From an uncultured Ignavibacteriaceae bacterium (GTDB lineage: Bacteria; Bacteroidota; Ignavibacteria; UBA10030), in assembly GCA_964473365.1 (NCBI GenBank), contig CAYYOV010000002.1:97576-161575 (forward strand): a stretch of 64,000 nucleotides of DNA, read 5' to 3'. Positions within the stretch are counted from its first letter, which is position 1. Each line of letters starts with the position of its first letter. Of the stretch, positions 10,481 to 25,425 are shown piece after piece. A program made the position numbers and the translations under genes. Below the pieces are notes generated by a model. The model made no database searches. It was not told the origin of the DNA and saw only the letters and a program-made list of their open reading frames with translations.

Positions 10481-10512
10481 CAGCGCCCCCGCGGGCGCAC
10501 GGAGGATGAGGC

Positions 10513-12306
10513 ATGCCAGAGATCGACATTACTGATAAGATCGGCTATACACTCCTGAAGAAGGGCATCATCGATTTCGAGACCCTCGAGAAATCGTTGA
10601 AGCTGAAGGACTCCGAGGAGAACAAGAAGAACCGGAAGAACCTCGGCCAGATCCTCGTCTCGGAGTTCGGCGCCGACCACGACGCCGTGTTCCGCGAAGT
10701 GGCGAATCTCTACGCCTTCCGCGAGATCTTCCTGAACGACGAAAAGATCGACGAGGCACGTATCGCCTTCGTCAAGAAGTTCGTCGACGCCCTGTCCGAT
10801 CAGCAGCGCGAGATGATGACGGCCGCGAAGATGCTGCCGTTCAAGTGGGACGAGCGACAAACGGACAAGCTGATCATCGTTGCCGCAGACCCGACCGACC
10901 GGAACCTGCCGGTGGTCGCCCGATCGTTCAACGTCAAGAAATACGAGATCTGCTACGTCCGTCTGAAGGACCTGCAGAACCTTCTCGAGAAGGTCGCCCC
11001 GAAGCAGAACGAGTTCCTGAAGATGCTCGATTCGAGCGAGACGATCGAAGAAGGCTCGATGAGCAAGGACGACGTCGAGGTCGACGAAGACGCGCTCGAA
11101 GCCGAGATCAACAAGAGCGCCCTCGTCAACCTCTTCGAAGGTTGCATCGTGGAGGCGGTCCGTCGGGACGTGTCCGATATTCACATCGTCGCGGCCGAAG
11201 GGAACAAGACCAACTTCATGTTCCGCGTCGACGGCAACCTGCAGGTCTGGCATTGCCAGGAGAATACGCTCCCCGAGGCCGTCATGGCGGTCATTAAGGA
11301 CCGCACGAAGAACGTGGACCGGTTCGAGCGTGAGATGTCGCAGGACGGATTCATCCAACGCGTCATCGACGGCCACCAGCTCCGGTTCCGCGTGTCGATC
11401 ATGCCGATCGTCACGACGGAATTCAAGCACAAATTCGAGAGCGTCGTCATCCGCGTTCTGGACGACCGGAAGGTCATCACGGACCTGAACAAGCTCGGGT
11501 TGCAGGGGCCCGCGAAGAACTTCTTCTACAAGGCCATTGGCAAGCCGCAAGGGATCGTCATCCTGACGGGCCCGACAGGGTCCGGCAAGTCGACCACGCT
11601 GATCGCCGCACTCTACCAGGTGATCGACCCGACCGTCAACGTTCTGACGATCGAAGAGCCCGTCGAGTACATCATCAAGGGCGCGCGACAGCTCAAGATC
11701 GGCCCGAAGATGGGGTTCGAACAGGCCATCCGCGGTATTCTGCGTCACGACCCCGACATCGTGCTCGTCGGTGAAATGCGCGATAAGGTCACGGCTGAGA
11801 CGGCCATCAAACTGGCCAACACAGGTCACTTGGTCTTCTCCACCCTGCACACGAACGATGCTCCCAGCGCGGTGGCACGTCTGTACAAGATGGGCATCGA
11901 GCCGTTCCTGATCGCATACGCCATCAACATCATCGTCGCCCAGCGGCTCATCCGTACGCTCTGCAAGGTCTGTAAGTCTCCCATCGATGAGGATGAGAAG
12001 GGAGACCTGCTGAAGTTCGGTTTCACGGAAGAGGACCTGGCCCAGCACACCTTCTACAAACCGGTCGGTTGCGACAAGTGTAACGGCGGATGGAAGGGGC
12101 GCGCGGCCATCCACGAGGCGCTCTTCTTCAGCAAGGCAATCAAGGACATCGTCCTGAATGCCGGCGACAAGGTCGATGAGAATGCCATCCGCGATCAAGC
12201 GTCGAAGGACGGCATGTGGACGCTCCGACGTTCTGGTATGGAGCGGATGAAGGAGGGGATGACAGCCCTTGAAGAGGTCATCGCGTCGACGGTCGAGGAC
12301 GAGTGA
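10513..12306 (+). CDS. pilB: Type IV pilus assembly ATPase (GspE/PilB family)
   Basis: 597 aa. N-terminal GSPII_E_N-like region (LGQILVSEFGADHDAVFREVANLYAF). Walker A GPTGSGKSTT, Asp box LTIEEPVEY, Walker B DPDIVLVGEMRD, His box GHLVFSTLHTNDA. Tetracysteine motif CKVCKSP...CDKCNGGWKGR. Confidence 0.92.
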   Translation: MPEIDITDKIGYTLLKKGIIDFETLEKSLKLKDSEENKKNRKNLGQILVSEFGADHDAVFREVANLYAFREIFLNDEKIDEARIAFVKKFVDALSDQQREMMTAAKMLPFKWDERQTDKLIIVAADPTDRNLPVVARSFNVKKYEICYVRLKDLQNLLEKVAPKQNEFLKMLDSSETIEEGSMSKDDVEVDEDALEAEINKSALVNLFEGCIVEAVRRDVSDIHIVAAEGNKTNFMFRVDGNLQVWHCQENTLPEAVMAVIKDRTKNVDRFEREMSQDGFIQRVIDGHQLRFRVSIMPIVTTEFKHKFESVVIRVLDDRKVITDLNKLGLQGPAKNFFYKAIGKPQGIVILTGPTGSGKSTTLIAALYQVIDPTVNVLTIEEPVEYIIKGARQLKIGPKMGFEQAIRGILRHDPDIVLVGEMRDKVTAETAIKLANTGHLVFSTLHTNDAPSAVARLYKMGIEPFLIAYAINIIVAQRLIRTLCKVCKSPIDEDEKGDLLKFGFTEEDLAQHTFYKPVGCDKCNGGWKGRAAIHEALFFSKAIKDIVLNAGDKVDENAIRDQASKDGMWTLRRSGMERMKEGMTALEEVIASTVEDE

Positions 12307-12335
12307 CCGTATCACAGCAGGGCAGCACGTACAAC

Positions 12336-12365
12336 GCAACGGGCGCTTCTTGGAGCGCCCGTTGC
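12336..12365. terminator. Bidirectional stem-loop between convergent pilB and the pilin-like operon
   Basis: Perfect 12-bp stem GCAACGGGCGCT (12336..12347) / AGCGCCCGTTGC (12354..12365) with a 6-nt loop. The flanking T/A tracts are weak. Confidence 0.55.
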
Positions 12366-12402
12366 TGTTCACTGACCTTCGTGCCCCAGTTACGCCGGGG
12401 CG

Positions 12403-13428
12403 CTATTCATACCATTCCACCACGCTGTAATACAACAACCTTCCGATCCGCTTTGCCTGGTCGAGAGCCTCGCTGCTATATTTCACCTTTCCTCCCGAAC
12501 CAGTACCCTTCAAGGTTAGGTGGACTTCCTCGCCCGCGACCATCACGCCGCCGACGATTTGTGGGTTTCCGAGAGCTTCGAAACTAATCACATTCTCCTC
12601 CCCGTACGCCATCACAAGGCCATACCATGTGAAGGAACCCGAGAACTTCACGTTCCCGTTGATGGCCAGGATCCCCCAGCCAACGACGCTGCCGGTGAAC
12701 CGGATTGAAAAGTTTGTGTCGGCCGTGCCGACGTTGCATACCACGATCACGGGGTTTGCGGCGCTTCCAAAGACCCAATCGCCCGCCACGTTGCCCGGTG
12801 TGTTGAATGTGTAGTGAGCACTCTGTTCATACTCCGGGATGAATGATGCGGGGCTGAGGGCGGTGGGGTCGGTCCCTACTTTGATCGAACCGGTGAGGTA
12901 CGGGGCCACTGAGGCATCGTTGATGATCTCGGCTGAATCTGATGGATTGCTTACTGTGATGGCCGGAAGATCCCCGCTGCCAGTCAATGCCGACCCGTCC
13001 GCGGTCCAGTTGCGGCCGTCCACGGAAGCCTTTCCGCTGATGTCCATTTCGGCGTCGTTGCTGATCATGCCGATGGCCGACTTCGACGTCGGGAACGGTT
13101 TCGGCGTAAAGAGCAGCTTGACACGCATGACGTAGGTCGATTCTGCGTAGACACCGCGTGAGACGATCCGGAGTGTATCCCCGACGGACGTTGCGGTGAC
13201 GGCGTAGGAGCCGCCTTGAAAGCTTGCGGTCGTCGGGGGCGTGATACCCCGGTCAATATACCTGAGGTGTCGGTTGACGGCGAGTCGGGCCATGTTCCGC
13301 GCAAACGAGTACTTGTAGTAGCCGACCTGGGCGCCGGTGAGCGTTTCGGCCGACTCTCGAAGGCTGCCGCCGATGAACCCGAAGGCGACCGCCATCCCCA
13401 TCACCAGAAACATCGCAGCTCGTCCCAT
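12403..13428 (-). CDS. PilX-N-like pilus-associated protein (putative minor pilin / tip protein)
   Basis: 341 aa. The N-terminus MGRAAMFLVMGMAVAFGFIGGSL resembles the PilX_N hydrophobic helix. The C-terminal part has a Gly-rich beta pattern (GWGILAINGNVKFSGSFTWYGLVMAYGEENV...IVGGVMVAG) seen in PilX-like proteins. No Gly-1/Glu+5 prepilin motif. Confidence 0.45.
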   Translation of the reverse strand: MGRAAMFLVMGMAVAFGFIGGSLRESAETLTGAQVGYYKYSFARNMARLAVNRHLRYIDRGITPPTTASFQGGSYAVTATSVGDTLRIVSRGVYAESTYVMRVKLLFTPKPFPTSKSAIGMISNDAEMDISGKASVDGRNWTADGSALTGSGDLPAITVSNPSDSAEIINDASVAPYLTGSIKVGTDPTALSPASFIPEYEQSAHYTFNTPGNVAGDWVFGSAANPVIVVCNVGTADTNFSIRFTGSVVGWGILAINGNVKFSGSFTWYGLVMAYGEENVISFEALGNPQIVGGVMVAGEEVHLTLKGTGSGGKVKYSSEALDQAKRIGRLLYYSVVEWYE

Positions 13429-13437
13429 GATTGGCCT

Positions 13438-14040
13438 CTACTTGGACAGATTGAGTTGATTGAGATTACGCGGGAAGATCAGCTTCTGCCATGTCACAAG
13501 CGAATACGTCGTATCACCCTGGGGCGTGAGGACCGGCTCAGGACTTGCTACCATGAAATAGACATTGATCCCGCGGATCTTAGCAAGTGTATCGACCTGG
13601 TTCGTCGGAACACCGATCCGAACGTTGTTTGAATCGAAGTACGAGATCCGAAAGTCGATCAAGCCGAAATTCTGTCGCAGGGCTGTTCCCGCCTGTATAC
13701 GGAACAGCGGAAAGTCGGTCGGGTTTGGCGTGTTCGCGGATTGGGCGATGGTGCCTGTCTGATACCGGTAGAGTGCCGTGTCCATATTGTTCGACACATC
13801 CGCCCGATAGTCGATGCGGCGCTCCGCTGCGTAAAAGATCCGCTGACCGCGTACGTGGTGGCCGATCTTCAGAAAATCGAATTCCACCTGGCGCGCGAGT
13901 TCAACGGCATTCCCCTGGGTGATGACCGTGAACGTGTTTTGATAGAGAGTGGCGTTGATGTTCGTCTGTACCCGGGCGACTGCCAGGACGAGGACACCAA
14001 AGATGATCGCGGAGGCGATATAATCCAGCATTGCCGACAT
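13438..14040 (-). CDS. Pilin-like protein with N-terminal hydrophobic helix (no prepilin leader)
   Basis: 200 aa. The N-terminus is MSAMLDYIASAIIFGVLVLAVARV. An in-frame TAG five codons upstream of the ATG excludes a longer leader. It is 9 nt from the next gene in the operon. No family recognised. Confidence 0.4.
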   Translation of the reverse strand: MSAMLDYIASAIIFGVLVLAVARVQTNINATLYQNTFTVITQGNAVELARQVEFDFLKIGHHVRGQRIFYAAERRIDYRADVSNNMDTALYRYQTGTIAQSANTPNPTDFPLFRIQAGTALRQNFGLIDFRISYFDSNNVRIGVPTNQVDTLAKIRGINVYFMVASPEPVLTPQGDTTYSLVTWQKLIFPRNLNQLNLSK

Positions 14041-14112
14041 GAAGAACCTCGCCTAGGGCCGTTCAGGATGGTCGATCGTGATCACGTAATCCGGGACTTT
14101 GCCAGACAGACA

Positions 14113-14664
14113 CTAATAGTACTTTCGGTAGACGGCGATATCATGCATCCGGTAGGGAATGACGTTCCCCGCGTCGTCCTTGATCATCGAAAAGTTCTGC
14201 ACGTTGACCATGATCCGCTTGTGCCACGTCTGGCTGGTTTGCACGGTCAAGTTGTCCTCGTGGACATACTCGATCGAATCCCGGACGATGAACCATCCGA
14301 GCCGTGGATTCCACACCCAACGGACGTATCCGTGATAGTCGTCGACGTCGTCAAATCGCCATTGGGAACGGAAGACTCCTGTTCGGGATGAATCGGGTGG
14401 AGTGATCGTCTCGCCACCGTCTGGCCCGAACGAGCCGCGGGATGTCATCCCAGCATTCGTGAATACGCGTCGATTGTTTGTCGTGTTTTCGTCGAAGCTC
14501 TTCGTGAGCACTTCGTCGAGCATTGACTGAGCGTACGACAAGGCGTTCAGGTTCGCCTCCATTTCAAGGCCCATGTTCGAGGTCTGAATGATCGTGGCGT
14601 TGACCGCTAGCGTCAGTGTCGAGAGGAGCGTGAACGCGCCGATCGTGAGCATCGCTTGTCCCAT
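14113..14664 (-). CDS. Pilin-like protein with N-terminal hydrophobic helix (no prepilin leader)
   Basis: 183 aa. The N-terminus is MGQAMLTIGAFTLLSTLTLAV, and GGAG lies ~12 nt upstream of the ATG. It is the first gene of the three-gene minus-strand operon. No family recognised. Confidence 0.4.
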   Translation of the reverse strand: MGQAMLTIGAFTLLSTLTLAVNATIIQTSNMGLEMEANLNALSYAQSMLDEVLTKSFDENTTNNRRVFTNAGMTSRGSFGPDGGETITPPDSSRTGVFRSQWRFDDVDDYHGYVRWVWNPRLGWFIVRDSIEYVHEDNLTVQTSQTWHKRIMVNVQNFSMIKDDAGNVIPYRMHDIAVYRKYY

Positions 14665-14970
14665 GGTGAACGTACTCCTGCTGGAATACCCATTCGTTGA
14701 ATGACGGGGTTGCTACCTCCGACCCAGAACACGTTAGCGGTTCCGGGTCCCCGGCCCTATGTGCCATATCACAGTTTCGTACGCGGCTATGACCGATCTT
14801 CGCAAGCCGTGAGACGACCCACCGGGCCACAACGGGTGGCGTGAGGCACAACTCTTTGTTGACTCCGGCCGGAGCGAAGGAGGTTTTCGACCTTGGCCTG
14901 AAATCCCGTTGACCGGTTATCTATTGATGCAACAATCCGTCCACAAACGCAAAAGGCAAATCAGCCGAAT

Positions 14971-14984
14971 TTCGAAGCTTCGAA
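14971..14984. promoter_or_regulatory. Perfect 14-bp palindrome TTCGAAGCTTCGAA in the divergent pil control region (candidate operator)
   Basis: The sequence equals its own reverse complement. It sits in the 584-bp non-coding gap between the minus-strand pilin-like operon and pilT, ~175 nt upstream of the pilT candidate promoter. Confidence 0.35.
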
Positions 14985-15158
14985 TGGTGAAGCCTGTATC
15001 GATTTGGTCCTGGGTGCTCAATTATGGGTAATAATGACACACCAGACCAAACGCCCCCACTGGCTGGCGCCAAGAATGTACGAAAACCTGCGGCCGAAAC
15101 ACAATATGATGTTGTAGCAGAAGATGGTGGAAAGAGCGCAACAAAGACTTTAAGCAAG

Positions 15159-15187
15159 TTGCAATTTACTGTGGCCTTCCGTATACT
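15159..15187 (+). promoter_or_regulatory. Candidate sigma70-type promoter (TTGCAA-N17-TATACT) for pilT and downstream genes
   Basis: TTGCAA at 15159..15164, a 17-nt spacer, then TATACT at 15182..15187. It lies ~60 nt upstream of ATG 15249. Confidence 0.5.
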
Positions 15188-15248
15188 CTACCGACTTAGT
15201 GGAGAAGAGACGGCTCGTACGAACAATACCTAAGACTCCAGAGTCCGC

Positions 15249-16556
15249 ATGCCCCCAACTTCGCCACCGCCAGCGCCAATGTCCAGACCGGGCAATGCTG
15301 CTGCTGCCGAGTTGTCTCCCGTTATTCTTGAAGGCCACAAGGTCCTGAAGGAAGTGGCGGCCACGTTGCCGCAGACCGTCACTGGCCTTGAGCGTCAGAT
15401 GATGATTGGCGATACCTTGTCGCGCGTCGATGAGACGTCGAAGATGAAGCTTCTGACGCTGATGAACCATCTTCTGTCAAAGATGTTCACGATCAATGCG
15501 TCAGACATCGACATGGGAGGCTATGGGTCCCAAGGATTTATTTGGTACCGGATCTATGGGTCAAAGAAGCCTGATCCGACGCTCGGGAAATACAGTCCCG
15601 ACGAGATGAATGTTCTCGTCCAGAGCGTTATTGGAGACCGTCAGCGCACGTTCCTCTACGAGAATCGGAACCTCGACTTCTCTCATATGCTGTACCTCGA
15701 GGGGGGTGAGTTCCGACGGTTCCGAGCCGACGCCTACTTCGACCTGGATCAGCTTGCGCTGAACATGAGGGCCATCAACAATACTGTCCGGCCCTACAAA
15801 TTGCTCGAGCTCCATCCGAGCGTGACGAAGATGGTCAGTCTGGCGCAGACGAAGGAAGGGCTCTGTCTTGTCACGGGCATCACAGGCTCCGGCAAGAGCT
15901 CGACGCTGGACGCCATCATCGATGCGAACAACCATTCCGTCGACGGCCACATCGTCATCATTGCGTCGCCGATCGAGTACGTGCACCGCTCCGATCGATG
16001 CATCATTCGTCACCGGGAGGTCGGGCGAGACGTCTTGTCGTTCAAGGAAGGGGCCATTCAGGCCCTGCGGCAGGATCCTGACATCATCATGCTCGGCGAA
16101 TTGCGCGATCCTGAGACAATCATGACGGCGCTCGAGATCACGGACTCGGGCCATAAGGTCTTCTCGACGCTTCACACCGCCTCGGCCGTGGAAAGTATCG
16201 ACCGGATCATCGGTGAAATTCCCCCCATCGAGCAGGAGCGCGTCCGGAATCGCCTGGGCGAAACGTTGCGGGCCGTGATCTCCCAAAAGCTCGTTCCCAG
16301 CCTCGACGGCAAGCGCGTCCTGGCGAAGGAGATCATGATCGCCACGCCGTCGGTCAGGGCCGCGATCAAGAACAACAACACGACCGAGATCTATCAGATG
16401 ATCTCTGAAGGTCTCGAGCAGGGGATGAATACGATGGAGCAGGATCTGAAACGCCTCTATCTGGCGAAGAAGATCTCGCTCGAGAACGCGATCAACTACG
16501 CCAACAACAAGCGTCGTCTACAGCAGTTGCTGCAGATCACTCCGTCGGACAACTAG
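15249..16556 (+). CDS. pilT: Twitching-motility (retraction) ATPase, PilT/PilU family, with N-terminal extension
   Basis: 435 aa. Walker A GITGSGKSST, Asp box IIASPIEYVH, Walker B DPDIIMLGELRD, His box GHKVFSTLHTASA, and a degenerate AIRNLIRE-type helix (SVRAAIKNNNTTEIYQMI). About 70-80 extra N-terminal residues begin with a Pro/Ala-rich stretch (MPPTSPPPAPMSRPGNAAAAE). Confidence 0.85.
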   Translation: MPPTSPPPAPMSRPGNAAAAELSPVILEGHKVLKEVAATLPQTVTGLERQMMIGDTLSRVDETSKMKLLTLMNHLLSKMFTINASDIDMGGYGSQGFIWYRIYGSKKPDPTLGKYSPDEMNVLVQSVIGDRQRTFLYENRNLDFSHMLYLEGGEFRRFRADAYFDLDQLALNMRAINNTVRPYKLLELHPSVTKMVSLAQTKEGLCLVTGITGSGKSSTLDAIIDANNHSVDGHIVIIASPIEYVHRSDRCIIRHREVGRDVLSFKEGAIQALRQDPDIIMLGELRDPETIMTALEITDSGHKVFSTLHTASAVESIDRIIGEIPPIEQERVRNRLGETLRAVISQKLVPSLDGKRVLAKEIMIATPSVRAAIKNNNTTEIYQMISEGLEQGMNTMEQDLKRLYLAKKISLENAINYANNKRRLQQLLQITPSDN

Positions 16557-16598
16557 CTCCGCGGACGAACCACCCGGCCGCAGTCAGACGGTGGCCGG

Positions 16599-18290
16599 AT
16601 GCCGCACATCGTTACCCCGCCGCTGACAGGCAGGCGGGTTGCTCCAGCGATCCACCACGTCGGAGACACCGGACCCCGTATGACTATCCAAAAAGGTGAT
16701 GGAAAGACCGCCGTCTCGCTGTTCGTCGACGGTCTGTCGCTGAAGTTCATTCAGCTCTCCTTGAAGGGTGGGAAGGTCGTTCTGCGCGATTTCAAGACCG
16801 TCGCGCTCGTGAAGAAGTTCGAGGAGAAGGAGCTCGCCGCCGAGAACGAGGAGTCGGGGGGGTTCGGCGAGACTCCCGCGCCTGGCGACGCCTTTGGAGG
16901 CGGCGCGGCAACACTCGATGGGGGACAAGAAGAGGAGGCGAACTCCAATTCTACTGTCCTCTTGGGTCTGCTATCCGATCTTGGGGCGAGATTTTCGCTC
17001 AACTATGCGCTCTCCGAGCCTGCAGTCACCTACCAGGAATTCGAATCGGACTTTGGCCTGAAGGGGACGGCGCTCCGCAAGCGGATCATCGAAGAACTGG
17101 CAACGTCTCGTGCCACACCGCCGGTGATGGACTCATTCGCGGTGATCCCACACGCCAACGGCGGGATCCTGACGGTGATCCGCGAGGACGGGCTGAACCT
17201 GTACGACCTGCTGACCGAGATCAAGAGTTTCCTCGGCAACCGGGCACCGAACCTGGAGTACATCGACAGCGCTGACGTGGCCCTCATTGAGATGATCCGG
17301 ACGGGCTACGAGGTCCAGGACGAAGAGGTGACGGTCGTTGTGTACGTCGGCCACGATTTCAGCCGCATCATCTTCATGCAGGGCAAGGAATATCTCCACT
17401 TCGCCCCGATCATCAGCGAAGGGCACGAATCGCCGAATCTGGAGAACACGCTCTACTCGCGCATCCTGCTCGAACAGGACAATATCGCCCTCGCCCGGAT
17501 GGACCGCATTATCCTGGCGGGTGAGGCGCACAAGGTGAACCTGCTCGAATCTTTGGCTCCGCAATTCTCCTCCGCACAGGTCGAGTACGCGCATATCCCC
17601 GACGTCGACCTGACACCGTTCGACGGATCGGTGGGCGAGGCGCTGTCGGAATATGCCATTCCGATCATGAATGCCTGGAAGGCGCTGGAGCCCAAGCGGA
17701 AGACCTTCTATTCTACGAACCTGATCCCGGGCGCGATCATCGAGGCCCAGAAGGTCTTCAAGCTGGCCTGGCACGGCTGGGTTACGGCGCTGGGCATCAT
17801 CGCGGCGATCGTTTTCTTTTACAATGCGATCCTCGAGCAGAGCGTCGATATTCGCCGGGCGAAAGAAGAACTCGCGCAGAAGCAGCTTCGCCTGGCCGAC
17901 CTCGACCTGTTCAGGTCCCGAAAGGACGTGCTCCAAGGCGATATCAACCGGTACATCAACGCGACGACGACGTACGACTCGATCGCGCCAGGCGGTGACC
18001 GCTGGAGCCGGATCCTCCACTATGTCGCAACGAGCGTCGAGGATCTGAACTCCATGTGGATCTACAATATGCGGCCCGATCCACAGAACAAATCGATCAT
18101 CATCCTCTCCGGTCGCTCGATCTACCGAACGCGGATTCCGCGCATCGCCAGCATCTTCGAGAAGGCCACACTGCGCGAGGTGCGGACGACAACGGTCCGG
18201 AACAAGATCGTGTATGAATTCGACATCGTCATCGAGCGGGTCGACAAACATGATATTCCCGAGCGGCCGTACGACGCCGCCCGGCGATAA
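16599..18290 (+). CDS. Apparent PilM-PilN fusion (actin-like cytoplasmic domain + TM helix + periplasmic coiled-coil domain)
   Basis: 563 aa. PilM-like strings: VSLFVDGLSLKFIQL, VVVYVGHDFSRIIFMQG, RIILAGEAHKVNLLESL. A single TM helix follows (WVTALGIIAAIVFFYNAIL, ~17769..17835), then a coiled-coil/PilN-like tail. An alternative start at ATG 16680 would give a more typical PilM N-terminus. Confidence 0.6.
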   Translation: MPHIVTPPLTGRRVAPAIHHVGDTGPRMTIQKGDGKTAVSLFVDGLSLKFIQLSLKGGKVVLRDFKTVALVKKFEEKELAAENEESGGFGETPAPGDAFGGGAATLDGGQEEEANSNSTVLLGLLSDLGARFSLNYALSEPAVTYQEFESDFGLKGTALRKRIIEELATSRATPPVMDSFAVIPHANGGILTVIREDGLNLYDLLTEIKSFLGNRAPNLEYIDSADVALIEMIRTGYEVQDEEVTVVVYVGHDFSRIIFMQGKEYLHFAPIISEGHESPNLENTLYSRILLEQDNIALARMDRIILAGEAHKVNLLESLAPQFSSAQVEYAHIPDVDLTPFDGSVGEALSEYAIPIMNAWKALEPKRKTFYSTNLIPGAIIEAQKVFKLAWHGWVTALGIIAAIVFFYNAILEQSVDIRRAKEELAQKQLRLADLDLFRSRKDVLQGDINRYINATTTYDSIAPGGDRWSRILHYVATSVEDLNSMWIYNMRPDPQNKSIIILSGRSIYRTRIPRIASIFEKATLREVRTTTVRNKIVYEFDIVIERVDKHDIPERPYDAARR

Positions 18291-18307: not shown

Positions 18308-19204
18308 GTGACCTATAAGATCCGCAATACGATCGCACTTGCCGTGGTCCTGCTGCTCTTCAGCGGTGGCGGTGCTTTCTGGTACTACTACTGGCAGCCG
18401 CGCGAGCTGAAAGCGCTCGTCAAGCAGATCCAGGCGATCGACAAGGAGCTCGACAATCTTCCGATCCTGACGGAAGAGGTCCAGCGGCTGACGGTACAAT
18501 TCCAGGACGTGAAGCGCCGGTACGATTCCCGGAGCAAAGAGATCCCCGAGTTCGACGTCTCCTCACAAACTTACGGCTATATGAGCCGGGGCATCGACGT
18601 TGCCGGGTTCCTGAAGTTTGATATGAAGTTTCTCGGAACGCAGGAAAGCCCCGGTTACGGATTCAACGCCTACAGGCTCGAGCAAGGGGAGGCCCAGTTC
18701 GACAACCTGTACCGCTTCGTCTACTTCCTGGAGAACGGCCGGCGGCTCTACAAGATCTCGACGCTCGCGCTTGAGTACAAGGATGCGGTCGATTCTGAGA
18801 CGAAGGAAACGAAGAAATGGATCGCATTCGACATGGAGCTCCATGCGTACTACGTGCGGGGCATTCCGGAGCTCGGTTCGTCGCTTGCGGCCCGCAGTTT
18901 GACCGTGGTACCGGCGCCATTTGACCCGTTCGATCCGCTCATCGTGCCGACGATCGCGGCGGAGGCGCCAATGGGCGAACTGAACCCGCGCAACGTCGAG
19001 ATCAAGGCGGTCCTGCCGGGCAAAGCATTTGTGTTGTATGAGAACGAGCTTATCGTCCTGCAGCTCGGCGATCGCGTATGGCGCGGCGCCGTCAGCGCGA
19101 TCGACCCGCGGACCAGCTCGGTGGAATTCACGCTCAACGAAGGTGGCGTGATCACGAAGGTGTCCAAGCAGATCCAATTTGACCGTCGAAGGAGGCTCCG
19201 GTGA
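18308..19204 (+). CDS. Apparent PilO-PilP fusion
   Basis: 298 aa. An N-terminal TM helix (IALAVVLLLFSGGGAFWYYYW), a coiled coil and an alpha/beta region are PilO-like. The C-terminus has a PFDPFDP motif and a beta-domain string (VEIKAVLPGKAFVLYENELIVLQLGDRVWRGAVSAIDP) that is PilP-like. Its stop overlaps the secretin GTG start (GTGA). Confidence 0.5.
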   Translation: MTYKIRNTIALAVVLLLFSGGGAFWYYYWQPRELKALVKQIQAIDKELDNLPILTEEVQRLTVQFQDVKRRYDSRSKEIPEFDVSSQTYGYMSRGIDVAGFLKFDMKFLGTQESPGYGFNAYRLEQGEAQFDNLYRFVYFLENGRRLYKISTLALEYKDAVDSETKETKKWIAFDMELHAYYVRGIPELGSSLAARSLTVVPAPFDPFDPLIVPTIAAEAPMGELNPRNVEIKAVLPGKAFVLYENELIVLQLGDRVWRGAVSAIDPRTSSVEFTLNEGGVITKVSKQIQFDRRRRLR

Positions 19205-20514
19205 ACCTCAAACGTGGAATGACCCTGTTGCTCATCGCCGTGCTGATGTCGGTGTCGGCGTTGGCCCAAACCGAGTCCCAGCTGCGACGCGCAGCCCAAG
19301 GGAAATCGGGAGCGGCTCCCGACGAGATCGTCTCGTTCCGTGCGGATGTACCGTATTCGCAGGCGATCAAATCGCTCGGAGATCTCTGGAAGACAAAGGG
19401 CGGGAAGATCGTCATCGACCGGTCGGGCACCAAAGAAGGGGACAAATCGATCGGCGTGAATATCGAGGCGATGTACTGGAAGGACGCCTTCGAGCTCATC
19501 CTGCGCTCGAACAAGCTCTGGTACAACCAGTATGAAGAGCACGTCGAAGTGGTTCCGATGGAGGAGGCCGGCAGGTCGGCCCAGGTTGACACGAAGACAG
19601 TCGAGCAGGCCAAGACGGGAGGCGCTCCTGTGACGACCCCCACAGCGAGCCAGATGCCGATGAACGAACTTCCGATGAAGGTCGACTCGGCCGAGTACTA
19701 CTTCAAGGATCGAGAGATCACGATCTCCAGCGTGTTCTTCGAGGTAGACCGGACAAAGCTGGCTCAGACCGGCATCGGCTTTTCCATCTTCCGGGGCAAA
19801 GGTCTCAACCTCGGCGTCGAGTTCAGCGGAGCGGACCGGATCACGACACCGATCCTCAATGCGACGGTCAGTCCGCGCGACAAGCGGCTGGCGGTGGACG
19901 TCGATGCGGCCCTACGCGTCTTCGAAAGCGAGCAGCTCGGCGAAGTGATCGCTCGTCCCCAGATCACGGTACGGAACGGCACATCGTCGAAGCTTCAGAG
20001 TGGCCAGAATTTTTCGGTGCAGTTGCGCGATTTTTCGGGCAACGTCGTCAACCAGTTCTACGAGACGGGCACGATCCTGACGGTCACGCCCAAGGTCTGG
20101 AAATTCCAAGAGAAGGAATTCATCAGCCTTAACTACAAGATCGAACGCAGCACGCTCCTCCCGTCAGCGACCACCATCCTGATCAACAAGACGGAGGCGA
20201 GCGGGACTCTCATGCTGCTGGACGGGGAAGAGGCGTACGTCGGTGGCCTGTACTCGACCGACGAATCGGTTACGCGCGAAGGTGTGCCGGTGCTCAAGGA
20301 CCTGCCGTGGTGGGTGCTCGGTCTGCGTTACTTGTTCGGCTTCGATGCAACCAGCTACAAGAAGAAGGAGCTCGTCGTCCTCATGCGCGCGCAGATGGTG
20401 CCGCTGCTCGAGGACCGGCTCAAGGCGGCCCCGGTGCAGCAGGGGTTGGACAACGTCCTGAAGGACATGAACCAGGACCTCCAGAAGCGGACGACACAAA
20501 AGAAGGTCCAGTAG
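19201..20514 (+). CDS. pilQ: Secretin (PilQ/GspD family), short form
   Basis: 437 aa. Signal peptide MNLKRGMTLLLIAVLMSVSALAQ. Secretin core strings ARPQITVRNGTSSKLQSGQNF, GTILTVTPKV and VPVLKDLPWWVLGLRYLFG. Only short N-terminal domains precede the secretin core. Confidence 0.8.
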   Translation: MNLKRGMTLLLIAVLMSVSALAQTESQLRRAAQGKSGAAPDEIVSFRADVPYSQAIKSLGDLWKTKGGKIVIDRSGTKEGDKSIGVNIEAMYWKDAFELILRSNKLWYNQYEEHVEVVPMEEAGRSAQVDTKTVEQAKTGGAPVTTPTASQMPMNELPMKVDSAEYYFKDREITISSVFFEVDRTKLAQTGIGFSIFRGKGLNLGVEFSGADRITTPILNATVSPRDKRLAVDVDAALRVFESEQLGEVIARPQITVRNGTSSKLQSGQNFSVQLRDFSGNVVNQFYETGTILTVTPKVWKFQEKEFISLNYKIERSTLLPSATTILINKTEASGTLMLLDGEEAYVGGLYSTDESVTREGVPVLKDLPWWVLGLRYLFGFDATSYKKKELVVLMRAQMVPLLEDRLKAAPVQQGLDNVLKDMNQDLQKRTTQKKVQ

Positions 20515-20689
20515 CCCCCGAAAGGGTTCGCGATACATCCACGAAGGTCACGAGGCACACGAGGTCGGTTCGGTCTTCAGACGAGGACACAGGTCGCATT
20601 CGTGTCGCTTCGTGCGCTTTGTGGATTTTGTTTCTTGTTCTGAGCCAGTTCGAGCTGGCATTCAATGAGATCGGTCACGGGAGGATGGT

Positions 20690-23600
20690 ATGACGTACGG
20701 TCAAGCGATTACGCGCCTGCTTACGGCTTCGCTGTTGTTGGTGATGGCGTGCCAGAACCCGGAGGAAGAAGGCCCGGGCGGAGGGACCACGGTCTCGACG
20801 ATCCTCAGCGGAAGGGTCCTCAGAAGCGACAACGGCACGGCCGTCCCAGGGGCCTACGTGCGGGACATCTCGAATGCGAGCAAGGTCGACACGACCGACG
20901 CGAACGGGACGTTTGCGCTGAGCTACGACCTGGCCGCGGGCCAGTCGTACGCGACCACCATCTATGCCACACGCACGCCCGGTTTTGGCAACGATTCGGC
21001 GTCGGTGACGTTGCAGTCAGGGACCAATCAGTCCGTCGACCTCATCCTCGTGGCCGACAGCACGAGCCCTCCGACCAATCCCGGGCAAACGTCCGGCCAG
21101 CCGGCCAGCGTCGTGCTCGTGGGGACAGAGGCAACGACCATTTCTATCCGCGGGACCGGATATAACGAATCATCCCTCCTCACGTTCGAAGTACGCGACT
21201 CGCTCGGGAATGCGATCCTCGGCGCGAATGGACCAAACGTGAAATTCGCGATCGTGGGTGGGCCGAATGGAGGCGAATATGTCTATCCGACGGTGGCACA
21301 GGTGGTCGCGGGGACAGGTCGGATCTCCACGCGGCTGAATGCGGGCACCAAGCCCGGTGTCATCCAGATCCAGGCGAGCACGCGGAACGATTCCGTCCTC
21401 TCTGCCCCTGCGCGTGTGACGATCGCGAGTGGTCTCCCGTATGGACCCAATGCTTCTATCGGACGCAGCAAGGCAAACGTAGCAGGTGGGTTGTTCGACA
21501 ACGAACGCGTTCGTATCACGGTCTTCCTGGGTGACCGATACCAGAACCCGGTCCCGCCAGGTACAGCCGTTTACTTCACGACCACGGGCGGCATCATTCA
21601 GCCGACTGCGTTCACGGACCAAGATGGCCAGGCGAGCGTCGATCTGATCACGGCCAATCCACGGCCGGCAGGGGGCGTCGCCATCATCACGGCCCGAACC
21701 ATTGGTGATACGGCTGCCCGTAAAGCAGATAGCCTCATCCAATTGCAGACGCAGGTAGTGTTCTCGGGCGCGACTATCATCACGGCTCCGACGGCAGCGT
21801 TCGGCGTTCCTGACAGCGGTTCGTACAGCTTCGCGTATTCCGTGCTCGACGCCAACGGCAACCCGTTGGTCGCCGGGACGACCATCCTCGTCACGCTCGA
21901 CGGCCCGGGGGCCGCAGACCTGGAGGCGCAGGGCGATGTTGATGTGACGATGAAGGATTCTCCGAATCCGGCAGACGGGAACTTCAACGTGAAGATCGTC
22001 GACAAGACCCGAGGTGGGACCGGAGGGTTCTTCGCGGTCAATATTAAGGTCAAGGGTCAGAATGGCGAGGCCTTCCACACCTTCAATGGATTGGCCCTGA
22101 CGACCGGTGGCGGTGGTGGATCCGTTTCTTCAACGAGCACCCCTCGTAGCATCGCACTGAGCTCGATCAGTTCTCGTACGTTGTCGGTCAAAGGGACCGG
22201 TGCGGGTGAAACAGCGCGCCTGACGTTCATCGTTCGGGATTCGCTCGGCAATCCGGTCGGCAACCCGTTGGATCCCTCCGTGAAGTCGTTCGTAACTTTC
22301 TCGATCAATCCATCGAGCGGTCTGGGCGGAGCGTTCGTGTACCCGTCGGGCGATTCGACGGACGTCAATGGACAAGTTGGAGTGAACTTCAATTCAGGTA
22401 CGCAGGCCGGTGTCGTGCAGGTCGTGGCAAGCACCGTGACCGCCGCTGGAACGATTACGGCTTCACCGGTGCAAATCACGATCCAGGGTGGTCTGCCTGA
22501 TTCGAACAGGTTCGTCGTAACGCTGGACCAGACGAACATGCCGGGCCTCGTCAAGACGGGTACGCTGGGCCAGGTGGCCGTCCAAGCGGCCGACGAATTC
22601 GGCAATGCCGTGCAACCCGGTACGGCGATCTACTTCACGACCAACATCGGCCTCATCAAGGCGTCCTCGGTTACGAATGAATCGGGCGTCGCGACCGCCC
22701 CGCTGAGCGGAGGCGTCGTTGGTGCTTCGACCGGACAGGGGACGGTTACTGTTCAGACGCTTGGTAAGAGTGGAGAAACTGTCCAGAAACAGCTGCCGTT
22801 CTTGTTCACGGGCGCTCCGGTCATTTCAAATGTCCCTGCGAGCGGCTTCAGCATTCCGGACAGCGGATTCTACAGCTTCTCGTTCACCGTGGCCGATGCG
22901 AACGGCAATCCGCTTTCAAAGGGTGCGACGATCACCGTCACAAAGGACGGAGCCGGATCGTCCGACCTGTCGCTCACGGGCGACGTCAATCGTACGATGA
23001 TCGATACGCGCTCGGTCGCTGCGACGACGTTCAACGTGACGGCGACGGACAAGTCGAATGGCGGGCCATCGGGTCCGGTCACCTTCACGATCAGCGTCTC
23101 CGGCCCCAATGGTGAAGCTACCGCAAGCTTCACGGGCTCGCAGCTTGTCACCGGACAACCCGGTACGGGTGGCTCAGGTTCTGGATTCGCTTCGAGCATC
23201 GAATTCCTCGGTTCACAAGGCAATGTGCGCACGCTGTCTGTGCGAGGCACGGGAGCGAATGAGGCGGTCATCGTCCGCTTTGTAGTCAAGGATTCGCTCG
23301 GGAGCCCTGTCGACCTGAACCATCGTGCGACAGTAACGCTGAGCATCCAGGGAGGTCCGGGAGGAGGGGAGTTCCTCTCGCCGACGCCGACGTCACTCTT
23401 AACGGACGCCAGCGGTCAGGTCTATGCGACATTGAATTCTGGGACGAAAGCCGGCGTGTTGCAGTTGCTGGCAACAGCGATCGTGAACGGCCGGACCATC
23501 ACGTCGGCTCCGATCGCCTTCACGATCTACGGTGGTCTGCCCTATGCGGGCGGTATGACCGTCTGGACGGACGTTTCGAATGTCCCGGGTCTGGTCGTGA

Positions 23601-25306
23601 GTGGCACACCGTTAGCCACAGTCAACGTTCAGTTGGCCGATGCCTACGGAAACCCGGTCCAACCAGGTACATCAATCTACTTCAGCACAACAGGCGGTTT
23701 GATTACGCCCTCGGCCGTGACCGATGCGACGGGTAAAGCGAACGCGACGCTCTTCGGCGGCCTCCCGTACCCTGTGAGTGGGATCGATACCGTCACTGTT
23801 ACGACCGTCGGAGCGAACAACGCGACTGTATCGAAGCAGATTGCGCTGACGTTCTCGGGTGCGCCCGTGTTGACAGTCCTGAATGTGCCGACGGATACGC
23901 TGACGATTCTGGACGGCGGATACTTCGACCTCGATTTCCGCTTGGCCGACGCTGCCGGGAATCCATTGGCGCAGGGCAATTCGGCCTCGGTGACCATCTC
24001 ATCGCTCGGGAACGCTGCAACAAGCGTGACCTTGGCCGGAGATATCACGACGACTACGATCGATACGCGTCTCGCAAGTACAACGTCGCGACGCGTCCGG
24101 TTGACGGATGCGGTAGCCAACGGCGGGAACTATGGTCCGTTCACGATCAGGATACGATCAACCGGACCCAATGGAACGGCAGAGAAGGTGCTGGGTGGCA
24201 TTCTGGGAGCGCCGTCGTCCATCACGCCTCCTTCGGCGACGGTCAAGAACCCGGCGCAGATCGCATTCATCGGTGTCTCCGCTTCGGACGTCTATGTGTC
24301 TGGTGTTGGAGCCCTCGAGAATTCTGTTATCACGTATGAGGTACGCGATTCGCTGGGCAACGCTATCGAAGCCAACCCGCGCGCGTATGTGAATTTCTCC
24401 ATCACCTTCTTCCCGAATACATTTGTACCGGGTGGCACGAGCCCGGTCCTCATTCCAGGTTCTGACAGTACGGATAATGCCGGGCGAGCCCGCGTCTCGA
24501 TGTCGTCAGGGACTCGTGCTGGTGTTGTGCAGATCGTCGCCAGCACGGTCGTGGGCATCAAGACCATCACGTCGCTTCCGGTGAAGATCACGATCCATGC
24601 CGGTTTCCCCGATCAACGGCACTTCACCATGGCACCCGACCGGTACAACTTCCCGGGTCTTGATAAGGCCTTCGTGACACAAAAGGTGACGGTCCAAGTG
24701 GCCGACAAGTATAGCAATCCTGTCCAGGCCGGGACGGCCGTCTATTTCTACAGCACGCATGGTACGATGCAGACCGGCGGAGGATCGCCTGGCCTCACAG
24801 ACCTGAACGGATTCGTCTCGCAGACGCTGTATTCCGCGAATCCGTATCCGGAGGGCGTTGATTCGCTCGCGATCGGCAAAGGGTTCACCTACATCTATTC
24901 ACAGACCCTCGGTGAGTCCGGCGCGCAGGTGATCGATTCGCTCGAGATACTTTGGACCGGTCAGCCTATCATTACCCGGACCTCCGGACCGAGCAGCTTC
25001 ACGATAATCAATGGCGGGAGTGGAGGCCCGTGGACCTTCTCTGTTGTCGATCGGTTCGGTCATCCGATGTCGGGCGGTACATCCATTAGTGTCTCCGCCG
25101 GCGACGGAACCGTGAACGGCGATGCTGATGCCACCATCACTGACACCAAGGTCGGCGGTGCGGGCGTCACAGACTTCACGATTACCGTGGATGATTCGGA
25201 TCCGGCAGATACTGATCCTCCGGCGAATGTGTTGCTGACAGTCGTCGTGACTCATCCGGTCTACGGTACCTACAAGAAAATCATCGCGACGGGTACCATC
25301 GACTAG
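20690..25306 (+). CDS. Giant surface lipoprotein built from bacterial Ig-like (Big_1/invasin-type) domains
   Basis: 1538 aa. Lipoprotein signal MTYGQAITRLLTASLLLVMAC (Cys21 codon 20750..20752). A CarboxypepD_reg-like segment follows (LSGRVLRSDNGTAVPGAYV...TDANGTFAL). Repeated Big_1-type strings are present (e.g. VFLGDRYQNPVPPGTAVYFTTTGG...TDQDGQASV). No T9SS-type C-terminal sorting domain is recognisable. Confidence 0.75.
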   Translation: MTYGQAITRLLTASLLLVMACQNPEEEGPGGGTTVSTILSGRVLRSDNGTAVPGAYVRDISNASKVDTTDANGTFALSYDLAAGQSYATTIYATRTPGFGNDSASVTLQSGTNQSVDLILVADSTSPPTNPGQTSGQPASVVLVGTEATTISIRGTGYNESSLLTFEVRDSLGNAILGANGPNVKFAIVGGPNGGEYVYPTVAQVVAGTGRISTRLNAGTKPGVIQIQASTRNDSVLSAPARVTIASGLPYGPNASIGRSKANVAGGLFDNERVRITVFLGDRYQNPVPPGTAVYFTTTGGIIQPTAFTDQDGQASVDLITANPRPAGGVAIITARTIGDTAARKADSLIQLQTQVVFSGATIITAPTAAFGVPDSGSYSFAYSVLDANGNPLVAGTTILVTLDGPGAADLEAQGDVDVTMKDSPNPADGNFNVKIVDKTRGGTGGFFAVNIKVKGQNGEAFHTFNGLALTTGGGGGSVSSTSTPRSIALSSISSRTLSVKGTGAGETARLTFIVRDSLGNPVGNPLDPSVKSFVTFSINPSSGLGGAFVYPSGDSTDVNGQVGVNFNSGTQAGVVQVVASTVTAAGTITASPVQITIQGGLPDSNRFVVTLDQTNMPGLVKTGTLGQVAVQAADEFGNAVQPGTAIYFTTNIGLIKASSVTNESGVATAPLSGGVVGASTGQGTVTVQTLGKSGETVQKQLPFLFTGAPVISNVPASGFSIPDSGFYSFSFTVADANGNPLSKGATITVTKDGAGSSDLSLTGDVNRTMIDTRSVAATTFNVTATDKSNGGPSGPVTFTISVSGPNGEATASFTGSQLVTGQPGTGGSGSGFASSIEFLGSQGNVRTLSVRGTGANEAVIVRFVVKDSLGSPVDLNHRATVTLSIQGGPGGGEFLSPTPTSLLTDASGQVYATLNSGTKAGVLQLLATAIVNGRTITSAPIAFTIYGGLPYAGGMTVWTDVSNVPGLVVSGTPLATVNVQLADAYGNPVQPGTSIYFSTTGGLITPSAVTDATGKANATLFGGLPYPVSGIDTVTVTTVGANNATVSKQIALTFSGAPVLTVLNVPTDTLTILDGGYFDLDFRLADAAGNPLAQGNSASVTISSLGNAATSVTLAGDITTTTIDTRLASTTSRRVRLTDAVANGGNYGPFTIRIRSTGPNGTAEKVLGGILGAPSSITPPSATVKNPAQIAFIGVSASDVYVSGVGALENSVITYEVRDSLGNAIEANPRAYVNFSITFFPNTFVPGGTSPVLIPGSDSTDNAGRARVSMSSGTRAGVVQIVASTVVGIKTITSLPVKITIHAGFPDQRHFTMAPDRYNFPGLDKAFVTQKVTVQVADKYSNPVQAGTAVYFYSTHGTMQTGGGSPGLTDLNGFVSQTLYSANPYPEGVDSLAIGKGFTYIYSQTLGESGAQVIDSLEILWTGQPIITRTSGPSSFTIINGGSGGPWTFSVVDRFGHPMSGGTSISVSAGDGTVNGDADATITDTKVGGAGVTDFTITVDDSDPADTDPPANVLLTVVVTHPVYGTYKKIIATGTID
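21101..25303 (+). repeat. Four tandem, diverged ~1.05-kb (~350-aa) super-repeats inside the giant lipoprotein gene
   Basis: The anchor motif (F/V/I)(E/I/V)V(R/K)DSLG(N/S) occurs at ~21184, ~22225, ~23276 and ~24335, giving periods of ~1041, ~1051 and ~1059 nt. Each unit repeats the same order of three to four Ig-like domains: ...RGTG..E...TF.VRDSLGN; ...NSGT.AGVVQ.VAS; ...D.YGNPVQPGTA.YF.TT.G; ...FSGAP....P...F.I.D.G...F...V.DANGNPL. Confidence 0.7.
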
Positions 25307-25332
25307 ACCTCGCACGCTCTTGCGTTGATCCA

Positions 25333-25368
25333 GACCCCGTTCTCGAGAAGAGGACGGGGTTTGGTGTT
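25333..25368 (+). terminator. Intrinsic terminator after the giant lipoprotein gene
   Basis: 7-bp stem ACCCCGT (25334..25340) / ACGGGGT (25354..25360) with a 13-nt loop, followed by TTGGTGTTT. Confidence 0.55.
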
Positions 25369-25371
25369 TCT

Positions 25372-25425
25372 AGAAGAGAACTCAGAGAGGAGAAAGAAGA
25401 AGAGAGAGGCCAGAAGTCAGGAGCA
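25372..25425 (+). repeat. Polypurine (AG) tract
   Basis: There is an uninterrupted 26-nt purine run at 25384..25409 (AGAGAGGAGAAAGAAGAAGAGAGAGG). It sits inside a ~55-nt purine-rich stretch in the convergent intergenic gap. Track ORF 25325..25567 is just its Lys/Arg/Glu-rich translation. Confidence 0.6.

Follow-up and report, generated by a model that had tools for sequence, protein, structure and literature searches.

The window analysed here is a 64,000-nucleotide stretch of DNA from an uncultured Ignavibacteriaceae bacterium (GenBank assembly GCA_964473365.1, contig CAYYOV010000002.1, positions 97,576 to 161,575 of the forward strand). Directly downstream of the secretin gene (pilQ) of its type IVa pilus cluster, it carries a gene for a 1538-aa lipoprotein made of immunoglobulin-like (Ig) repeats. 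We found that this placement is conserved in distant lineages, that the repeats match the Ig domains of invasin-type adhesins in fold, and that members of the family differ widely in their number of repeat units while the units at the two ends keep their identity by position. Most likely, the family is a partner or cargo of the type IVa pilus machine that has not been described before. For the lipoprotein itself we favour, with about an even chance of being right, a surface-displayed, invasin-like protein that works together with the pilus.

The lipoprotein gene follows pilQ in distant lineages

In the loci of eight homologues, which are 32-61% identical to the query, the lipoprotein gene stands directly after the secretin gene and on the same strand in all eight cases. 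The genes further downstream differ among these loci (an epimerase, an aminotransferase, UDG, or a small minus-strand gene set), and in six of them (L004, L009, L010, L011, L012 and L013) the downstream flank is altered while the junction between pilQ and the lipoprotein gene is retained. In one of the six, L010, small genes are missing between pilB and pilT, and the lipoprotein gene is still at pilQ; downstream of the lipoprotein gene this locus has four small genes of 164-338 aa (13841..16720 of that locus, minus strand). The pilin-like module appears to relocate, and the lipoprotein gene remains at pilQ.

A locus search with the lipoprotein as a single protein gave only four close relatives, and an alignment of nine PilQ orthologues (alignment A2, the PilQ of the window and eight others) was used instead. 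It returned 573 relatives, of which the best-scoring 80 loci were kept; 76 of these had at least 600 nt downstream of the secretin gene and were usable, and a hidden Markov model (HMM) of the repeat unit served as the detector. Within this set, taken from the best 80 of 573, a lipoprotein homologue lies immediately 3' of the secretin gene in 59 of the 76 loci, and the linkage spans Ignavibacteria, Kryptonia and Calditrichaceae. The 17 loci with no match belong mostly to the most distant secretins (KSB1, Zixibacteria, Coatesbacteria and some Calditrichia), and most of them have unrelated genes behind the secretin gene; one, L028, has a lipoprotein start of similar style that is truncated at the contig end. 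An earlier note on the window, made from its sequence, had tentatively assigned the gene to the secretin machine and had proposed conserved linkage in relatives as a check. That linkage was found, with a varying downstream flank, which gives the idea strong support from synteny and leaves it unrefuted.

The distance between the two genes was measured in the 30 loci with a placeable start codon, where lipobox and start codon were called by a simple rule. The median gap is 34 nt, with 11-18 nt in Kryptonia and Calditrichaceae, and in two loci the genes overlap by 4 and 19 nt. As judged from this spacing, the arrangement would often be operon-like. Separately, we noticed two metagenome-assembled genomes (MAGs) in which two contigs each carry a secretin gene and a family member (L021 and L024 of SKW296; L075 and L080 of PGF172224_bin_266). 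Either the pair of pilQ and lipoprotein gene was duplicated as a unit, or the bins are mixtures of two strains.

The gene product is a lipoprotein with an N-terminal beta-sandwich

The uninterrupted open reading frame (ORF) at 20690..25306 on the plus strand translates into a lipoprotein of 1538 aa, and its codon-position GC content is gene-like (GC3 0.71 versus GC2 0.53). Its N-terminus, MTYGQAITRLLTASLLLVMAC, is a lipoprotein signal peptide (20690..20752) that ends in the lipobox VMAC, within ..LLLVMAC, with Cys21 as the cysteine; the earlier note had read the frame, the LVMAC lipobox and Cys21 exactly so. We retrieved 180 homologues, from Ignavibacteria-type MAGs, and the source databases label the family members only 'hypothetical' or 'Ig-like domain-containing'. 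Cys21 is invariant across 30 aligned homologues, and a lipobox was recognised in no fewer than 77 of 120 homologues from the databases; the rest include many that are cut at the N-terminus.

Pfam assigned six stretches of the protein to Invasin_D3 (E 1.2e-24), whereas the NCBIfam scan of the lipoprotein gave zero matches, and neither Pfam nor NCBIfam recognised a catalytic domain in it. A further Pfam match, to CarbopepD_reg_2 (PF13715; aa 39-120, E 4.9e-4), falls below the gathering score. It is nevertheless backed by two other results: a profile of the family picks up NTE domains of SusC-like transporters (9hfj_A 5.1e-5, 6ytc_A 9.8e-5 and 5t3r_D 6.2e-4), and the same region is modelled confidently as a beta-sandwich (aa 34-120, 20789..21049, plus strand; AlphaFold2 strands with pLDDT ~90). 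The CarboxypepD_reg-like segment proposed in the earlier note is borne out in this way. This N-domain is the least conserved stretch of the family alignment. In SusC the NTE precedes the TonB box and the barrel, whereas here the domain follows a lipid anchor and precedes Ig domains. The NTE domain of SusC is periplasmic and its function is unknown (PMC7782687). A domain of the same Pfam family behind a lipid anchor may bear on the binding partner of the NTE.

At the other end, the protein stops with the last strand of an Ig domain. Pfam gave no match to a C-terminal sorting domain of the type IX secretion system (T9SS; Por_Secre_tail) in the 1538-aa protein, in agreement with the earlier note, and a reading as T9SS cargo was rejected on these two grounds.

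Four collinear units are predicted to form a rod of Ig domains

The V(R/K)DSLG anchor occurs four times, at aa 169, 516, 867 and 1219 (nt 21194, 22235, 23288 and 24344), each time within ~12 nt of a position given in the earlier note. We delimited the units by cutting at the anchors and aligned them with MAFFT. Self-alignment confirmed four diverged copies of ~350 aa, collinear, 347-355 aa long and 33-45% identical in pairs. All are on the plus strand: unit 1 (aa 134-480, 21089..22129) is the membrane-proximal or 'first' unit, units 2 (aa 481-831, 22130..23182) and 3 (aa 832-1183, 23183..24238) are 'middle' units, and unit 4 (aa 1184-1538 and the stop codon, 24239..25306) is the membrane-distal or 'last' unit. 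Tandem Repeats Finder found no super-repeat at the DNA level within the gene, indicating that the copies are too diverged in their DNA, and self-BLAST of the protein returned the full-length self-match alone.

The AlphaFold2 model of unit 2 was based on an alignment of 44 units from the window and the eight related loci (alignment A1). It consists of three consecutive Ig-like beta-sandwiches (mean pLDDT 93.8, pTM 0.79). The Ig composition that the earlier note had given for each unit therefore stands, and its count of three to four domains is corrected to three. In a Foldseek search of the PDB with this model, the top match was the Escherichia coli adhesin FdeC (4e9l; E 4e-11, TM 0.55/0.60), and intimin D0-D1 was matched as well. 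A second model, of aa 1-480 (alignment A3, pLDDT 86.8), has a signal helix, a disordered linker (aa 22-31), the beta-sandwich of aa 34-120 and the three Ig domains of unit 1 in this order, and its fold matches are FdeC, invasin (1cwv) and intimin. No pilus-related structure was found among the fold matches of the two models. According to these models, the layout of the lipoprotein is a lipid anchor, a linker, an NTE-like domain and four times three Big_1-type Ig domains, and the whole protein is predicted to be a rod-like, lipid-anchored chain of 13 beta-sandwich domains.

The ends of the protein are conserved and the middle varies in length

Among 120 listed homologues, two full units were counted in 9 proteins, three in 49, four in 30, five in 20, six in 6 and seven in 6. 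A one-unit form of 458-505 aa occurs in Kryptonia, Calditrichaceae and many Ignavibacteriales and is the common form outside Ignavibacteria. It consists of a signal peptide, the N-domain and exactly one unit, and it aligns end to end with aa 1-480 of the window protein. A profile search over 1.84 billion representatives (E <= 1e-30) returned 1763 cluster representatives, which is an upper bound for the family because some of the matches are generic Big_1 giants. A member of 4280 aa reaches 12 matched stretches, and the family thus ranges from 1 to 12 units. The 1538-aa form is a four-fold enlargement of an ancestral one-unit lipoprotein of ~470 aa.

In a FastTree tree of the 44 units, with the topology read without support values, units cluster by their position in the protein: there is a 'first unit' clade, a 'last unit' clade and a separate middle group, to which lineage-specific unit duplications are confined. 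Unit 2 of the window protein falls together with three paralogous middle units (2, 3 and 4) of L001, a relative with six units, and unit 3 is orthologous to unit 5 of the six (60% identity). Unit 1, in the 'first unit' clade, shares 73% of its residues with its counterpart in the closest relative. For unit 4, in the 'last unit' clade, the identity to the final unit of L001 reaches 88%, compared with 61% for the whole protein, and unit 4 is also the best match of the last units of L011, L013 and L009. From the positional clades and the 88% identity of unit 4 it follows that the ends are conserved and that the middle is a spacer of variable length.

Two of the loci deserve a separate remark. In L025 (11349..21335), four consecutive ORFs that match the unit follow the secretin gene and fill all 10 kb of the flank that is available; they are either separate genes or a single, very large one that frameshifts in a long-read assembly have split. 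In L004, the start of the called gene (10001..17143) falls within unit 1 and is overlapped by an ORF of 178 aa in a different frame (9520..10056); here a frameshift or a mis-called start probably masks the lipoprotein N-terminus.

The upstream genes belong to a type IVa pilus cluster

The secretin gene (19201..20514, plus strand) encodes a short PilQ-type protein of 437 aa (Pfam Secretin, E 2.7e-24), whose best NCBIfam match, TIGR02515 IV_pilus_PilQ (E 1e-21), is below the cut-off of that model. The plus-strand run that ends in the lipoprotein gene begins with a PilT-family ATPase (15249..16556; Pfam T2SSE, and NCBIfam TIGR01420 pilT_fam with 325.8 bits against a cut-off of 319.1). It continues with a 563-aa protein in the PilM-PilN position (16599..18290), which has no Pfam or NCBIfam match and one internal membrane helix, and a 298-aa protein in the PilO-PilP position (18308..19204), which has an N-terminal membrane helix and no family match and whose stop codon overlaps the pilQ start (19201..19204). 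Genes of similar length hold these positions in the relatives: one of 509-535 aa the PilM-PilN position in all eight loci, and one of 279-303 aa the PilO-PilP position in those examined. Further upstream are a PilC/GspF-like platform protein (9110..10480, plus strand), a PilB-like ATPase (10513..12306, plus strand) and three pilin-like genes (12403..14664, minus strand). The presence of a retraction ATPase, PilT, identifies the machine as a type IVa pilus system rather than a type II secretion system (T2SS); the comparison with pullulanase as cargo of a T2SS, drawn in the earlier note, does not hold in that respect. Family scans found no TPR-type pilotin gene among the cluster proteins.

Past its last conserved secretin motif, PilQ itself carries a charged tail of ~35 aa (C-terminal stretch 20285..20514), and such a tail was seen in all 80 orthologues. 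Measured from the DLPWW motif, the tail has 67-76 aa where a lipoprotein gene follows and otherwise 74-96 aa, with one outlier of 247 aa. We had considered it as a docking site specific for the lipoprotein, in the manner of an S-domain, and rejected this, as the tail is present with or without the lipoprotein gene.

A hairpin lies between pilQ and the lipoprotein gene

The gap between the two genes (20515..20689, plus strand) is 175 nt long in the window. It contains an imperfect hairpin of ~90 nt (20537..20627) followed by AUUUUGUUUCUUGUU, with a U-rich tail at 20628..20642, and a ribosome-binding site, GGGAGG (20679..20684). The hairpin has a fold energy of -70.7 kcal/mol (z = -3.2), and a simple terminator scan did not list it. 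In the two closest relatives the gaps are 105 and 234 nt long, and only the last 19 nt, including GGGAGG, are conserved. The hairpin could be a terminator or an attenuator; in our reading it is at most a lineage-specific attenuator or stabiliser, and it may lower the expression of the giant gene relative to pilQ. As a conserved regulatory element or a dispersed repeat it was rejected, since it occurs neither in the closest relatives nor elsewhere in the window and the loci.

No sigma-70-like promoter was found in the gap, and no Bacteroidetes-type TAnnTTTG promoter in the gap or upstream of the eight plus-strand genes checked. The earlier note had seen neither promoter nor terminator in the gap: the former part agrees with these scans and the latter is doubtful in view of the hairpin and its U-rich tail. 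The best sigma-70-like match upstream of pilT is TTGCAA-17-TATACT (15159..15187), and on sequence grounds the nearest plausible promoter would be the one upstream of pilT. An intrinsic terminator closes the lipoprotein gene (25330..25374, plus strand), with a 15-bp stem that includes 9 GC pairs and has TGTTTCT behind it; its fold energy is -35.5 kcal/mol (z = -3.8). It had been noticed before at 25333..25368, which we correct to 25330..25364 and the T tail. Past this terminator, in the convergent gap before the epimerase gene, there is an unbroken purine run, GAGAGGAGAAAGAAGAAGAGAGAGG (25384..25410).

Comparison with known systems

The closest parallel is InvL of Acinetobacter baumannii, a barrel-less, invasin-like lipoprotein whose surface localisation depends on the T2SS secretin and on GspN (PMC9245377, PMC12802150). 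Both proteins are lipoproteins of intimin/invasin-type Ig-like domains that lack the barrel of inverse autotransporters; dependence on a secretin machine is a feature of InvL. The two also differ. InvL belongs with a T2SS and GspN and has GGG directly after its cysteine, whereas here the machine is a type IVa pilus system, the cysteine is followed by QNPEEE and the cluster holds no GspN-like gene. Moreover, the window gene sits in the putative operon of the secretin, and its family has 1-12 super-repeats of three domains each. PulA of Klebsiella resembles the window protein in that a lipoprotein gene lies beside a secretin-based machine, and display on the surface by the machine is a feature of PulA. 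PulA is an enzyme and belongs to a true T2SS with PulN, whereas the window protein has no recognised catalytic domain and accompanies a pilus machine.

With the inverse autotransporters invasin (1CWV), intimin (6TPL) and FdeC (4E9L) the window protein shares a rod of Big_1-type Ig domains. In contrast to them, it has a lipid anchor, with a short linker and an 87-aa beta-sandwich behind it, in place of a 12-stranded N-terminal beta-barrel or a LysM domain, neither of which was found by family scans or in the model; its C-terminal 355 aa are the fourth three-Ig unit and not a lectin-like tip; and its repeat is a triplet of diverged Ig domains. Among the components of type IVa pilus machines, PilF, PilW, Tgl and TsaP are pilotins or secretin partners, that is, lipoproteins or envelope proteins needed at the PilQ pore. 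They are small TPR or LysM proteins of fixed size and are sometimes encoded with pilus genes; other pilotins have a small helical or cracked-barrel fold. We rejected a reading as a TPR pilotin, since the window protein, a 1538-aa all-beta chain of Ig domains, has the lipid anchor alone in common with these. A reading as a tip adhesin of the PilY1 / PilC kind, with a C-terminal beta-propeller and a gene among those of the minor pilins, was also rejected: neither Pfam nor the models gave a beta-propeller, and the gene follows pilQ instead of lying by the pilin-like genes at 12403..14664.

Discussion

The placement after pilQ is conserved over distant lineages while the flanks change, which argues that the lipoprotein depends functionally on the pilus machine. 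In the explanation that we favour, the lipoprotein gene is the last member of a type IVa run of pilT, putative pilMN, putative pilOP and pilQ, and its product is an enlarged form of an ancestral one-unit protein of ~470 aa whose gene is conserved next to pilQ in Ignavibacteria, Kryptonia and Calditrichaceae. The lipid anchor, the N-domain, the first unit and the distal last unit stay where they are, and middle units were duplicated and lost, which makes them a spacer of variable length. On the surface the protein could act as an invasin-like adhesin or as a spacer alongside the pilus; reaching and retracting would be left to the pilus, and the rod would provide the hold at short range. Membership in the operon might then reflect a physical dependence on PilQ or a dependence in export. 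If the protein is surface-displayed, export by the pilus machine (in the manner of InvL and PulA) and export by a general surface-lipoprotein pathway of the Bacteroidota type are about equally likely. We also entertain, tentatively, a more specific possibility: an outer part of the type IVa pilus machine that has so far gone unrecognised, shared by Ignavibacteria, Kryptonia and Calditrichaceae, which would dock on PilQ or next to it by its conserved proximal end and either be displayed by the pilus machine or form a ring of rods round the exit, with its length set by the middle units.

Length, too, speaks for a place on the surface. An Ig domain is ~4 nm long, and 4 to ~37 domains would therefore span ~16-150 nm, with ~50 nm for the 13 domains of the window protein. 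A span of 50-150 nm (13 to ~37 domains) does not fit an extended arrangement inside the periplasm. Wide variation in length is typical of fibrillar surface adhesins and hard to fit to a fixed periplasmic complex, and the surface-displayed reading is favoured for this reason.

Several observations weigh against this reading. The 17 of 76 secretin loci that lack the lipoprotein gene mean that the pilus machine can exist alone. The nearest solved sequence relatives of the N-domain, the SusC NTE domains, are periplasmic, which keeps a model of a periplasmic partner alive. The protein lacks a separate tip domain (a lectin domain, for instance) that would hint at a specific ligand. Export signals give little guidance: the sorting motif of T2SS lipoproteins is GGG or ND(N/D) at P2'-P4' after the cysteine (PMC12802150), and it is absent from the window protein, which has Q-N-P at these positions, although this rule comes from Acinetobacter and might not hold in other phyla. 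The family consensus after the cysteine is Q-N-P-T-G/E-P-E. Family scans of the cluster proteins found no GspN- or PulN-like (AsmA-like) gene. The lipoprotein export signal (LES) of Bacteroidota, K-(D/E)2 or Q-A-(D/E)2 directly after the lipidated cysteine (PMC5080379), is matched only loosely: the window protein reads C-Q-N-P-E-E-E, with its acidic run beginning at +5, and of 77 homologues 13 have at least two D/E at +2..+5 and 67 at least one at +2..+9. The gap hairpin with its U-rich tail could end transcription after pilQ. Finally, no RNA runs holding the sequence were found, only two bioreactor metagenome DNA runs, and for this reason we can but infer co-transcription with pilQ.

We considered three other explanations. 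One is a periplasm-facing accessory that helps PilQ to be targeted, assembled, gated or connected to the wall, as pilotins, TsaP and plug proteins do, with the extra units as tolerated decoration. It would account for the immediate and often tight adjacency to pilQ across very distant lineages, for the invariant lipid-anchor cysteine and for the lack of a visible TPR-type pilotin gene in the cluster; moreover, the N-domain resembles the periplasmic NTE of SusC, and the common form, with only four domains, could fit into the periplasm. We nevertheless consider it unlikely, as a series of 1-12 units with conserved distal and variable middle units fits a machine of fixed size poorly, the all-beta Ig fold is unlike any known pilotin and gave no pilus-related fold match, conservation across the family is lowest in the N-domain, and the charged PilQ tail, being independent of the lipoprotein gene, gives no sign of a dedicated docking site.

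The conserved ends and the variable spacer, together with the lack of a separate tip domain, would also suit an extracellular collar or fence, in which one rod per PilQ subunit, anchored next to the pore, would help to guide the pilus through an outer layer and the number of units would match the thickness of that layer. The pairing of the gene with that of an outer-membrane pore recalls susC/susD, and such pairs of barrel and surface-lipoprotein genes are typical of Bacteroidota. A comparable structure is not known for any secretin, and we regard a collar as quite improbable. The remaining explanation is that a surface or envelope gene unrelated to the pilus lies beside pilQ merely because gene order is conserved in the lineage. 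Partial synteny of the downstream genes (epimerase, TPR protein, UDG, hydrolase and citrate synthase) in several relatives speaks for it, as does the 175-nt gap with its possible terminator in the window. It is, however, very improbable in view of a junction that stays constant where the flank changes in six loci, a linkage over Ignavibacteria, Kryptonia and Calditrichaceae in which the two genes overlap or lie 11-50 nt apart, and a lipoprotein gene that lacks its own promoter.

Few envelope nanomachines have been studied as well as type IV pilus machines, and to our knowledge an Ig-repeat lipoprotein is not on their textbook list of parts. If the protein is a structural partner, the pilus machine would have one more component than known so far in a large group of environmental bacteria. 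Display of a lipoprotein by a secretin machine is so far known to us only for PulA and InvL and not for a type IVa pilus; if PilQ is needed for surfacing, the type IVa pilus would share this ability with the T2SS. The series of 1 to 12 units, with fixed ends and a variable middle, would be a clear example from nature of how the length of a fibrillar surface protein is tuned.

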